Source of the DNA: a virus
Taxonomy: Duplodnaviria > Heunggongvirae > Uroviricota > Caudoviricetes
Virus record (IMG/VR): IMGVR_UViG_2718218449_000013
Strand: one strand, 5' to 3'
Length of the DNA: 39,903 bases
The position numbers were made by a program. This document shows, one piece after another, positions 12,001-18,000 of this stretch; within the stretch, counting starts at the first letter, position 1, and each line of letters starts with the position of its first letter.

Positions 12001-15000
12001 CACATTCATATCCGGGCGCACTTTCCAGTGAAACGTCTCCATTACCGATATGCTCCACTTAACCGACCACCATCACGGGCCTGCTGTTGCATAAAGTCCG
12101 CTGCCGCTTTTTTCCCGAGGTCATAAACCGCCTTCAGGGCAGCCGGACCTATCTGCCCGTTCGTGCCATCGTTATTGATCTCGATGTTGTACTGCGGGGA
12201 AAACATCGCCATACCTGAACCCCCAATATCCGCCACAACCCCCAGCTTACCGTCAGCACCACGACGCAATGGCAGAATGGCTTCAGGTCCCGCTTCCCCC
12301 ATCACACCCGCGCCTTTTGCAAAAGCAAAAAACGTCGGACGGTTAACCACCGTGCCACTGTAACGACTCAAATCAGCAGACTGATAAATCCCCCCATTGG
12401 CATTCAGGGAAAGGCTGCTGAGATCAAATCCCAGTACACTGCCAATCCCTTTTATCGATTTCATCATGGTTGCCTGCGCCAGGATTTTCGCCATATCTGA
12501 CAGCACAGAAGAGGTGAAGGATTTGAAATTGAGTTTGCCGGTAGTGACAAAAGTTGCCAGGCCATTTCCCATGTTGCTGAAGGCTGACGAGAACACCTGT
12601 TCTGCTGTTTCTGCCGTATTATCTGCATCCACGGTAAAATCCTGAAATGCACGCAGGACTCCGTTTTTCCAGTTACCCTGTACAACTTCAAGCTGTTGCC
12701 AGTAACGGCGATTCTCATTCAGTTGTCGGTTCAGGCTCTGAACCGCCCCGGAAATCCTGGAGACTAAACTCCCTGAGAAAGAGGTAAACAGGATGACTAA
12801 AAATACTCGTTTTTCCCCCGAAGTCCGTCAGCGGGCGATTCGTATGGTTCTGGAAAGTCAGGATGAATATGACTCACAGTGGGCGGCAATTTGTTCCATT
12901 GCCCCAAAGATTGGCTGTACGCCGGAGACTCTGCGTGTCTGGGTTCGCCAGCATGAGCGGGATACCGGGGGCGGTGATGGTGGGCTCACCAGCGCTGAAC
13001 GTCAGCGTCTGAAAGAGCTGGAACGTGAAAATCGTGAACTGCGCCGCAGTAACGATATCCTTCGCCAGGCTTCCGCTTATTTTGCGAAGGCGGAGTTCGA
13101 CCGCCTCTGGAAAAAATGATGCCACTGCTGGATAAGCTGCGTGAGCAGTACGGGGTCGGACCGGTATGCAGCGAACTGCATATTGCCCCGTCAACGTATT
13201 ACCATTGTCAGCAACAGCGACATCATCCGGATAAACGCAGTGCCCGTGCGCAGCACGACGACTGGCTGAAGAGAGAGATACAGCGCGTATACGATGAAAA
13301 TCATCAGGTGTACGGTGTGCGTAAAGTCTGGCGTCAGTTGTTACGGGAAGGAATCAGGGTGGCCAGATGTACAGTGGCACGTCTCATGGCGGTTATGGGA
13401 CTTGCCGGTGTTCTCCGGGGTAAAAAGGTCCGTACGACCATCAGCCGGAAAGCCGTTGCCGCAGGCGACCGCGTAAACCGTCAGTTCGTGGCAGAACGAC
13501 CTGACCAGCTGTGGGTGGCTGATTTTACTTACGTCAGCACATGGCAGGGCTTCGTCTATGTGGCGTTTATCATTGATGTGTTTGCCGGATACATCGTGGG
13601 GTGGCGGGTCTCATCGTCTATGGAAACGACATTCGTGCTGGATGCGCTGGAGCAGGCGTTGTGGGCCCGTCGTCCGTCTGGCACCATCCATCACAGCGAT
13701 AAAGGCTCTCAGTATGTGTCACTGGCCTATACGGAGCGACTAAAAGAAGCCGGATTACTGGCATCAACAGGGAGTACAGGCGACTCGTATGACAACGCGA
13801 TGGCTGAGAGCATCAATGGTCTTTACAAAGCGGAGGTAATACACCGTAAGAGCTGGAAAAACCGTGCAGAAGTGGAACTGGCCACACTAACGTGGGTGGA
13901 CTGGTATAACAATCGACGATTGCTGGGAAGGCTGGGCCATACTCCTCCGGCAGAAGCAGAAAAAGCTTATTATGCTTCCATCGGAAACGATGATCTGGCA
14001 GCCTGAGTTCACAGATAAAACACTCTCCAGGAAACCCGGGGCGGTTCACTCTCCGTCAGCGCCTGCTCGGCCTTTCTGTAGTCATCCGTGTTATATGTCC
14101 CTTTCTGCTCACTATCCCGCCTCAACTGCTCCAGCTGTTGCTGGTATTTCTGGCGAAGACTCAGTTGTACCTGATATCGCTGTCGCTGCTGATCACCCAT
14201 ACCCACCGTGGCGATATCCAGGTCATGTTGCTGACGCTGAGCGCGCTCTTCTTCAGCCAGTTGACTGGTCAGCTGAATTGTTTTTTTCTTCAGCTCGTTG
14301 AGTGCCGTCTGTTTCTGAAGCTCCTGCTGTTTTACATCCAGCAGCGTCAGTGCCTGAATCAGTTCATCTTTACGGGCCAGCACACTCTTTTCATCTGCCG
14401 TCAGTTTTTTCCCGTCCAGGTCGCTGATGCGCTGCTGCAGAGCCAGAAGCTGTTTACGCGCTTCTGTCATCCTTTCCGTGGCAATGCCTGCTGACTGTCT
14501 GGCAGCAGCAATCTGTCCTTCCACCTGTGCCTGTTGCTGACTGTACTGCAGCAATAACCGGGTGGCCTCATCATTACGGGTTTCGCGTGTTTTTTTCTTA
14601 CCGGATGCCAGGGCTTTCTCGTAACGTTCATTTTCACGTTGTATCGCCGCATCCCTGACAGCCTGATCGGCGTACTGCATGGCATTAATACGCGCTATTT
14701 CACGCTGATGTCGTGCTGCTTCCGTTTCATTCATCCGGTTCAGTGCAGCATTTTCAGCATTACGGCGTTTCTGTTGCTCCTGATAATTCCGCTCTGCCTG
14801 CTCTTTTGCATCCTGCAAATCCTTCTGGCGTTTTTTCTCCTGAAGATCGTTAAGACGCTGCTGATCGTATTCAACCTGAGAAGATGATGCCGTCCAGGGG
14901 AGTCTTTTCGCCCGCGACACTTTCTCCTGTAAAGCGGCAATCTGTTCATCCAGCGAGTCTTCACGACCAATATTCATGGCCGCATCCCAGAAACGACTCC

Positions 15001-18000
15001 ACAAATCAGACAGATACTTCAGCGTACTGCCAAGCGCATTGAGGTTATTATCAATATCCGCAGTACGCCGACCGGTTTCCTCTGCCAGTGCAGACATGGC
15101 TATCCGTGCAGCATCACTGGACCGCCCCTGCTCCCCAAGGACGCGTATCTGCTCAAGCTGAGTGGCAGTAAGAAAATGCAGCTCATTGTCCAGAGCCTTC
15201 GCGGCATTTACAGGATCATCCTTCAGCCGCTTAAACTGATTTATGGTATCGCTGACCGACTGGCCAACCGATCGCTCCATCTGTGCGGCAGCTCTCGCCA
15301 CCATACCGATATCGTTTCCACGAAATGCACCACTCCCCACCACCTGAGCCAGCGCACCGGCTGCAGCATGTTGCGTGATACCATTCCCGGAAATAGCACG
15401 ACTGAGCGTCCACAGCTGCCCGGCAGTGACTCCGGCATAATGCCCCGTCAGCGACAGCTGGCGGTTAAATTCTTCCCCCTCCTTCTGACCGTCATACCAG
15501 GCTTTACCCAGACCATAGACAGCCGCGGCAATACCGCCAATAACCGCTCCTGGCATCATGCCTTTCGGTGACATCAGTGTGTCTATCCACCCGGCACGGT
15601 TAGCCAGCGTTATTCCGGATCCCCTCAGCGCACCTAAATTGCCGCGGGCCAGTTCACCTATCAGAACGCCTATCTCCTGACGGGCTGCTGCACTTTTCAG
15701 ACCCAGCGAATGCGTGGCTTTTCCTGCCTGCTCCATTTTGCGGATATACACTTCTGCAGCACTGCTTACCCCCAGCTGGGCAGCCTTAGCACGAAGCAAC
15801 TCAGAAGAAGAAAGATTCTGGCGGGTTGCCTGCTCTTTAAGCTGACGGATAAACGCCACTTTCTGTCGGGTAGCCTCTTCCTCAGCCTGTGTAAGAACAC
15901 GGGTTTTCGCCGTAACCTCAGAAATCAGCGCCAGATAATCCTGCTGACCAATCCCGCCACTGTTTCTGGCCTGTCGGATCTGTTGCTGAATACGCTGTAA
16001 TTCCTGCAGCCCCGCACCGGCCTGTTTCACACTGTCAATCTGACGATAAAACGCAGCAGCCGCTTTATCCTGAGCCTCCGCCAGAGCCATGGCCTGCGCC
16101 TGTTCCTCGCGCATTTTCTGGCTCAGTGCCTCCATACGCTGGCGGGTTTGCTCCACCTCGCGGGCCATGCGTTCATGAGCCTGTGCGCTCTTCTCCACCG
16201 TCTGCGCATGGACGGATGCGGCTGTTGCAGCCGAAGAAGCCGCCTGCATTGTCTGCCGGGCGGCCTGAGTCTGACGCTCCATAAAACGCTGCATACGGGC
16301 AGAAGACCGTTCTGCATCGCTGGCTGCACCATTCAGAAGGTTTTTGATACGGGGAATTTCATTTTTAAACTCTGCCGCATCAATCCCCAAATCAATGACC
16401 AGGTTGGCTATCTGGTCCATAACGCACACCTCCGGAAATACCTTCCCCAAGATGCATCAGTTCTTCGTCCGTTCGCTCCGGTATCCCGTTCTCTTCCGGT
16501 AAAAGGCTGAAATCAGCCACCGCAGCATCACTGCTACCGGACACCATTCTCACGATCAATGCCTTCAGCGAGGCAAACTGCGCATCCATCCACACATCAC
16601 TGAAGCTCTGCATCCGGAAATAATCGCCCCACTCACCAAGCTCAGTGGCCGACATTTCCGACAGCATCCGCCGCCAGTCTGCCCGCCGGAACTCCCGGGC
16701 AAGCCGCATGACAAACTGCATTTCCCGCGTCAGGACTTTTCCGGCGTCAGCACCTCATGCTCCAAATCCCCGGCATTCTCAATGGCTCCCATACCGCTCA
16801 GCGACAGAACCATCTCCGCCCCCGCTCCCAGGGCATCATACGACCATGTTGTAATAACGGATGCGCAAAGCGTCTCAACATCCTGAGACTGTTCCGCATT
16901 CCACAGTGAGCGGGAAACCAGCCAGGCATTGATATCCATCCCCATCCGCAGAAAAGCAATCTGTCGTTCAGCCTCCGGCAGTTCTCCCTCTTCGGCATCA
17001 AACTTTGCCGTTCGCTGCTGAACAAACGCCAGATATTCAATTCTCTGCAGCCCGGACAGCTCACTGAGCACCACGGACTGCTTTTCATAATTAAACGTGC
17101 CCTGTTTCAGAAACATCATGTTCTCCACCTGCAAAAAAGCCCCGGATAACCGGGGCAAATGATGAGTATCGTCCTGTTAACCTGCAGCGCTGACAGTCAC
17201 CGCAGCCACAGCCACAAAATTCCCGTCAGCGGTCATGCCCACAATGCTGACGCTGCCCTGCTTCACGCCTTTCACCGTGGCCACAAGTCCGTTCAGGGTC
17301 ACAGTGGCTGTCTGTGGATCTGTCGAATGCACACTGATCGCTTTGTCACTGGCTCCGTCAGGTTTTACTGTAAAGGTCAGCGTGGTGGTTGCTCCCACAT
17401 TGACACTGGCGGATGCCGGTGCCACCGTCAGCCCGGTAACGCCCACAGTTTCAGTGCCCTCCTCTGCCAGATATGGACGCCCCACACCGCTGATTTTCAC
17501 TGTGCGGGTCATCACGTCTTTTGAGGCAATGGTTTTACCCAGTGAGCTCAGCCAGCCGCGGAAAACATCAACAGTGCCGTTGGGATATTTGATACGAAAC
17601 GCGCAGACTTCACCGGAGTCGAACAACTGAACCAGTTTTTTCTGCCCGCTGTCACCCGGACGCCAGGCCAGCGTCGCCGAAGTATCACCAACGGATTTCT
17701 GCCCCTGGGTTGTCGTTTTCCAGTCTGCATCTTCATCATCGAGATAAGTGTCATCTTCTGCATCAGCGGTCATTTCGCCAGGTTGCAGATCCTTCACCAT
17801 CGCAAGACGCAGCCAGTCAGTGTCCGACAAAGGGTTCGCAAACGCATCGCCGTTGCCGGTATACATCCAGAACGTCGTCCCCGCACCTTTCGTCTTTGCC
17901 AGTGGATTTGGCGTGGTCATTACCACCTCCTTAATTCGTGTACGTGATCTGGTACGTGATTTCCGCCATCGCCCAGGTGGCCATCTCATTATCACGTTGA

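Follow-up and report, generated by a model that had tools for sequence, protein, structure and literature searches.

The 39,903-nt stretch of Caudoviricetes DNA analysed here at its full length (the window; IMG/VR record IMGVR_UViG_2718218449_000013) carries a lambdoid prophage of Escherichia coli O157:H7, known as Sp3 in strain Sakai and as CP-933K in EDL933. Its tail tape-measure gene, H, is interrupted by a complete 1,310-bp insertion sequence (IS) of the IS629/IS1203 type, a member of the IS3 family (12739..14048, plus strand). We hold with high confidence that codon 791 of H was the landing site of an active IS629 (IS1203 subtype) in an ancestor of a small O157:H7 sublineage.

The target site and the restored gene

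The IS sits on the plus strand and H on the minus strand, the break falling inside codon 791. A CTC trinucleotide flanks the element on both sides, with the left copy at 12736..12738 and the right copy at 14049..14051. On the plus strand, the left junction reads ...GGTTCAGGCTC|TGAACCGCCCCGG... (12736-12739) and the right junction ...GGGGCGGTTCA|CTCTCCGTCAG (14048-14051). Strain TR01 has exactly the empty site that these junctions predict, with one CTC. A 3-bp repeat by itself has a chance expectation of 1/64; because TR01 carries the restored sequence with a single CTC, the repeat is a true target duplication and not a coincidence. Target duplications of 3-4 bp have been described for IS629 (PMC3271280).

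Removing positions 12739-14051 in silico leaves one uninterrupted open reading frame (ORF) on the minus strand. It can be read from a TTG at 16450 or from an ATG at 16420, the latter giving a gene of 3,066 nt and a protein of 1,021 aa. The ATG is the start used by the NCBI pipeline in every strain with an intact H, and it is likely to be the true one. The restored 3,066-nt gene is base-for-base identical to the intact H of TR01 (WP_000371994.1), and the intact 1,021-aa protein, 100% identical, is annotated in many O157 genomes. The first-pass annotation had described a previously intact H split by an IS with a direct CTC duplication, and had proposed that taking out the IS and one CTC copy would restore a single in-frame gene. 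All of this is confirmed by the excision, by the identical TR01 gene and by the two CTC copies read here against the single one in TR01. Its figure of about 1,031 codons is arithmetically right for the TTG at 16450 (1,031 aa), but is replaced by 1,021 with the likelier ATG.

At full length, the H DNA is 98.6-99.2% identical to that of the viable phages mEp460 (98.6% nucleotide identity), Ayreon, Tritos and PhiR47_1. With about 99% identity to genes of viable phages, the target of the insertion was a working-type gene and not an older pseudogene. The same identity suggests that the protein sets tail length and is needed for tail assembly. Restored H contains the Pfam domains TMP_2 (residues 228-426, E=4e-49), TMP_4 (616-693) and Tape_meas_lam_C (811-885). 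With lambda gpH (chain 8iyk_H of the solved tail-tip structure 8iyk) it shares homology (E=7.9e-50), in an alignment that runs to residue 851 and includes a near-identical C-terminal motif. The match to chain Ha of a related tail structure, 9e7m, is limited to a 32-residue C-terminal piece (query 986-1016), which fits the established view that the tape-measure C-terminus sits in the tail tip.

The insertion leaves H in two pieces. The 5' fragment (14049..16420, minus strand; codons 1-790 plus two bases of codon 791) holds TMP_2 and TMP_4 and reads into the IS as far as a stop at 14009, giving 791 H residues followed by 12 IS-encoded residues. The 3' fragment (12042..12738, minus strand; the last 230 codons plus the stop) holds the Tape_meas_lam_C domain and the conserved C-terminus. 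The break leaves it without a start signal of its own; the earliest in-frame start codon, a GTG, comes 35 codons further on. Judging from lambda biology and the domains lost, a truncated H without its C-terminal part would not be expected to nucleate a tail. RefSeq flags both fragments as pseudogenes and labels the element 'IS3-like element IS1203 family transposase, programmed frameshift'.

Structure and coding capacity of the element

The element was recognised by full-length identity to annotated copies, and its ends were set against the TR01 empty site. The left terminal inverted repeat, IRL (TGAACCGCCCCGGAAATCCTGGAGA; 12739..12763, plus strand), pairs with the reverse complement of the right end, IRR, which ends in ...GGGGCGGTTCA (14024..14048, plus strand). 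The two agree at the first 13 of 13 terminal bases and at 22 of 25 overall, and are thus imperfect repeats. The ends are of the 5'-TG...CA-3' type, with TGAACC... on the left and ...GGTTCA on the right.

Two ORFs lie between them on the plus strand. orfA (12793..13119, 108 aa) encodes a helix-turn-helix protein (Pfam HTH_Tnp_1, E=2.4e-12), and orfB (13116..14006, 296 aa) the DDE transposase core (Pfam HTH_21 and rve, E=9e-28). The phase of orfB is -1 relative to orfA (orfA in frame 1, orfB in frame 0), and the ORFs overlap in ATGA, directly after a run of six A (13109-13114). Over this slippery run Rfam places the frameshift-stimulating pseudoknot ALIL (RF01497; 13074..13190, plus strand; 121.5 bits against a gathering score of 50, E=2.8e-31), the sole match in a scan of the whole 39.9-kb window. 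Slippage by -1 at the A6 run would join the two ORFs into an OrfAB fusion of 404 aa; a programmed-frameshift fusion is also annotated by the Prokaryotic Genome Annotation Pipeline (PGAP) in the identical sequence of strain 272. By motif position, a DD(35)E triad is predicted to be present in OrfB, with D136, D195 and E231 (spacings 59 and 36) as candidate residues inside the rve match. With ORFs, Pfam and Rfam matches, terminal repeats and empty site in agreement, the earlier description of a 1,310-bp IS3-family element at 12739-14048, with imperfect inverted repeats and orfA/orfB in -1 frameshift configuration, stands on re-inspection.

The window IS is 100% identical over 1,310 bp to many plasmid and chromosome copies labelled 'IS3-like element IS1203 family', and is therefore an undecayed copy. 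Its identity is based on these NCBI PGAP labels on 100%-identical copies. According to Rump et al., IS1203 is an IS629 isoform and the main O157 subtype, the O157 subtypes of IS629 differing by 4-5% (PMC3271280). The label 'IS629-like' given to the element at first is, therefore, correct.

A promoter and terminator scan of 12000-14300 gave no promoter-like site, and its terminator-like sites did not go beyond the range of shuffled sequence; we draw no inference from it on polarity or outward promoters.

The sequence of the target itself, CGGTTCA-GGCTC-TGAACCG (12727-12745), has a peculiarity of its own. The right inverted repeat ends in the same seven bases as the heptamer CGGTTCA, which lies 5 bp short of the insertion point; this heptamer and the start of the left repeat are inverted copies of each other over 7 bp, separated by a 5-bp spacer. 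IS911, another IS3-family element, inserts beside sequences resembling its own ends, and the heptamer may have been a cue for target choice at the window site. As a general signal it was tried and dropped: a scan of one genome per species for CGGTTCA-N3-8-IRL was uninformative, its 46 matches all being in unrelated, mostly GC-rich taxa and none in Enterobacteriaceae, probably because the pattern is a short palindrome.

Distribution of the insertion

A 100-base probe spanning the left junction matched 3 of 5,426 complete E. coli genomes, namely strains 272 (UK), 3-5-1 (Nebraska cattle) and 08-3918 (USA stool), with 27_141091 as a near-miss. The empty-site probe matched 1,810 genomes. About 307-310 genomes carry the Sp3 late region (>=80% of 25 kb), nearly all without the window IS. 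The insertion is derived and rare. Since isolates from two continents share the junction, it has been inherited within a sublineage and is neither a one-strain nor a brand-new event. The transposition had been called recent and clean: clean it is, by its repeats, its CTC duplication and the TR01 site, whereas recent applies only in a relative sense to an insertion shared by three genomes.

A catalogue of 47 IS629 sites in Sakai, EDL933, EC4115 and TW14359 has none in Sp3; 62% of IS629 copies are in prophages (PMC3271280). IS elements are reported to be over-represented in prophages (Shaaban et al., PMC5359411). A literature search found no paper naming the H insertion of the window.

The host prophage

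Over positions 1-37500 (37.5 kb), the window matches strain 272 of E. coli O157:H7, which came from a human case in the UK (NZ_CP018239.1), with 100% identity. The locus is the lambda attachment site, between ybhB/bio and ybhC, and a ybhC-like ORF (38620-39903) lies next to int. The integrase gene (37415-38485, plus strand) is a full-length ORF of 356 aa, near-identical to lambda Int, and its catalytic residues are presumably in place. An IS629 end lies inside the same integrase gene in strains 472, F6667 and AUSMDU00002545.

Other parts of the prophage are decayed. The portal gene is split on the minus strand (21569-23150) into ORFs of 374 aa (22026-23150) and 120 aa (21569-21931), and a split portal is also annotated in every strain whose portal region was fetched. 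ninE (33441-33623, minus strand) adjoins a bet gene lacking its N-terminus (33656-34324, plus strand), and between bet and ninE the window lacks the whole immunity and replication region from gam to ren, with N, cI, cro, O and P. In Sakai, Sp3 was scored as having no repressor or replication functions, with integration, recombination and portal defective and tail functions intact (Asadulghani et al., PMC2669165 Table 1), and no circularisation, replication or packaging was detected (PMC2669165). The split portal of the window matches the 'portal defective' score of Sakai Sp3. Shaaban et al., who sequenced strain 272, place Sp3 among the 'fixed' prophages (PMC5359411).

The prophage was, thus, already non-viable before the IS arrived. 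With cI, cro, O and P gone, bet truncated, the portal split and Sakai Sp3 inert (PMC2669165), the IS does not change viability; what it takes away is one of the few modules that were still intact. The first-pass statement that no normal tail can be made with the IS in place is true of the H gene, but wrongly implies an otherwise live phage.

H follows the G/T chaperone pair and precedes M-L-K-I-J. In the PGAP annotation of the identical strain 272 sequence and of F6667, the tail assembly chaperone genes are G (16730-17116, minus strand) and T (16392-16721, minus strand), a pair directly upstream of H. Downstream lie the tail genes M (11713-12042, minus strand) and L (11005-11703, minus strand), as given by the ORF list and the annotation of strain 272 and F6667. 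Beyond the tail fibres are the type III effector genes nleH1-1 (2-883), nleC (1710-2729) and nleB2 (2763-3743). This effector cargo is AT-rich (34-44% GC, against about 55% in the phage genes). A gene for the lipid A deacylase LpxR (30828-31787) sits on the opposite strand, with the nin region and Q on either side. A scan of the window for tRNA genes found none.

Proposed course of events

From what is known of the IS3 family, ribosomes would slip by -1 on the A6 run, aided by the downstream pseudoknot, and so make the OrfAB transposase. A circular IS copy produced by copy-out-paste-in transposition would then insert at cuts staggered by 3 bp, giving the CTC duplication. In the sequence, this splits H into 791 native plus 12 IS-encoded residues and separates the C-terminal part, and loss of function would presumably follow. 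The insertion is best read as neutral further decay of a dead prophage and as a lineage marker. Other lambdoid prophages in the cell would also have one intact H copy fewer to draw on among the available tail genes, and precise loss of the IS should restore H exactly. O157 carries the IS-excision enhancer (IEE), which promotes the excision of IS3-family elements and the deletion of IS-flanking DNA (PMC9397093).

Several points weigh against this account. The putative non-functionality of truncated H is argued from lambda biology and from the domains lost. A phage carrying stx2::IS629 still made plaques, which shows that the polarity of IS629 within a late operon is incomplete (PMC7430833); M, L, K, I and J, downstream of H, need not be affected and may still be expressed. 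The published int defect of Sakai Sp3 is not seen in the window, so that the list of defects may differ in detail. Lastly, H has been struck repeatedly in other strains, and such insertions may not be strictly neutral.

Recurrent insertions in the late region

We searched for further IS629-type insertions with two 25-kb queries, one for each IS orientation, fetched the matching loci and placed their elements on an IS-free reference. The search covered the 23.7-kb late region in the about 307-310 genomes that carry it. Events in the minus orientation are those among the matches listed, a list that is possibly incomplete, and the independence of events was judged by distinct positions only. At least 17 distinct IS629-type events were found in the region. 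Fifteen are placeable simple insertions, each with a 3-bp duplication; the other two are a flanking deletion in 27_141091 and a tail-fibre insertion in 180-PT54, located from annotation only.

At least nine of these events are in H. Eight of them are marked by duplications at 12602-04 (NZRM4165), 12674-76 (ERL04-3476), 12736-38 (this window), 14175-77 (319, 350, Z1834 and 180-PT54), 14493-95 (F8798), 14884-86 (F6667), 14975-77 (ERL03-1416, ERL06-2442, ERL06-2503 and 61_150228) and 16126-28 (strain 143). The remaining one, in 27_141091, lies 2 bp further into H than the window site, has its right junction at the 14975 site (site B) and has lost 921 bp of H. Our preferred reading is that the copy at site B produced a flanking deletion ending 2 bp from the window site. 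A recombinant between IS copies at the window site and site B was considered and rejected, since the left junction lies 2 bp further into H; for the same reason we count it as an independent event. Outside H, three events are in the small tail-fibre gene (9.1_Anguil, FRIK1989 and F3398), two in the large tail-fibre gene (TX265-1 and 180-PT54) and one each in J (CEC13002), between G and V (PA11) and in the DUF2190 gene (NE1169-1 and NE1127). The side tail-fibre genes (3920-5507 in the window, 1.6 kb) thus received at least five independent insertions, three of them in the 270-bp gene for the C-terminal domain. The insertions in NZRM4165 and TX265-1 are of a variant only about 95% identical to the window IS, which indicates that at least two IS629 subtypes have been active on Sp3, in agreement with the subtypes of Rump et al.

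These counts bear on the main rival to neutral decay, namely that the insertion is not neutral: loss of H or of the side tail fibres would be selected, or these genes would be preferred IS629 targets, with convergent disabling of tails as the outcome. H makes up 12.9% of the region length and has 9 of the 17 events among the matches listed (binomial P=9e-5); together with the tail-fibre genes it has 14 of 17 (P=5e-8). A stretch of 261 bp around the window site contains five of the nine H events (simulation P~0.02, post hoc), and the deletion endpoint 2 bp from that site and the CGGTTCA heptamer point in the same direction. On the other side, the minus-orientation events are those among the matches listed, the cluster statistics within the gene are post hoc and any fitness effect is putative. 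No target motif is shared across the placed insertion sites, just as Rump et al. found no common IS629 target motif (PMC3271280). GC content was considered as a cause of the clustering and set aside, as that of H (53.5%) is not distinctive. The same pattern could also arise if insertions in the remaining late genes were removed by purifying selection.

We regard the recurrent hits as a lead, an observation and not a conclusion. That H and the side tail-fibre genes of Sp3 are true IS629 hot spots, through target preference or because tail disabling is favoured, so that IS629 acts non-randomly, is a real possibility to which we give somewhat less than even credence. We lean to the same degree away from the corresponding view of the window insertion as non-neutral, and retain neutral decay as its better description.

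Other explanations

It is improbable that the split H still yields a working tape measure, either from its two fragments or through frequent precise excision mediated by IEE. Excision would restore H, and IEE restores IS-disrupted genes in Shiga toxin-producing E. coli at low frequency (PMC9397093). Against this, the 3' fragment lacks a start at the break, Tape_meas_lam_C and the C-terminus are separated from the rest, and the insertion has been stably inherited in isolates from two continents.

Still less credible, to our mind, is that H was already a pseudogene and the IS not its inactivating lesion. The split portal gene and the deleted early region show that the prophage carries other lesions, but restored H has no stop or frameshift and is 100% identical to the intact H of O157 and about 99% identical to that of viable phages. 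That the insertion is an artefact, an IS copy put in the wrong place when a repeat-rich prophage was assembled, is just as hard to believe: the about 20 IS629 copies and many near-identical lambdoid prophages of an O157 genome may confuse assemblers (copy numbers from PMC3271280), but three complete genomes, sequenced independently and coming from different countries and laboratories, share the identical junction, and a perfect 3-bp duplication with exact inverted-repeat ends is unlike the product of a misjoin.

Significance and comparison with known systems

Taken alone, transposition of IS629 into H matters little, being one more IS629 erosion of a cryptic O157:H7 prophage. The junction can be used as a typing marker for the sublineage, as it is present in only 3 of 5,426 complete genomes, and the case illustrates that an apparently complete prophage tail module can differ between close strains. 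The defective prophage pool helps to mobilise virulence genes between strains (PMC2669165); if confirmed, the recurrent hits in H and the tail-fibre genes would bear on IS629 target choice or on selection acting on the tail genes of this pool. What a specialist might pursue is the non-random clustering of separate hits in H and the tail-fibre genes. Were the hot-spot reading true, prophage tails would be disabled by IS629 convergently and non-randomly, and the element would not be a random mutagen.

The window prophage shares chromosomal position, gene order, cargo and the published defects (repressor and replication genes missing, portal and recombination genes defective) with Sp3/CP-933K, whose known cargo is nleB2, nleC, nleH1-1 and nleD. 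It differs from Sakai Sp3, in which major and minor tail functions were scored intact (PMC2669165), in that its tape-measure gene is split by an IS. With lambda gpH, the H of the window shares the G-T-H-M-L synteny and the TMP_2, TMP_4 and Tape_meas_lam_C domains; it differs in being interrupted by an IS and in its length of 1,021 aa, against 853 aa in lambda, from which a longer tail than that of lambda would be expected. The element shares with the known IS629/IS1203 of E. coli O157:H7 its length, TG...CA repeats, -1 frameshift with ALIL, rve core and 3-bp duplication, and shows no structural difference from it. IS elements reportedly inactivate and immobilise O157 prophages (Ooka and colleagues, Genome Research, 2009). 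The erosion of O157 prophages by IS629 is already well published, and the sequence and annotation of the window are public; the insertion is real but ordinary. It is an instance of the published concept of IS-disabled O157 prophages (Ooka et al. 2009; Shaaban et al. 2016), here in the form of an IS629 in an essential phage gene of a resident prophage.

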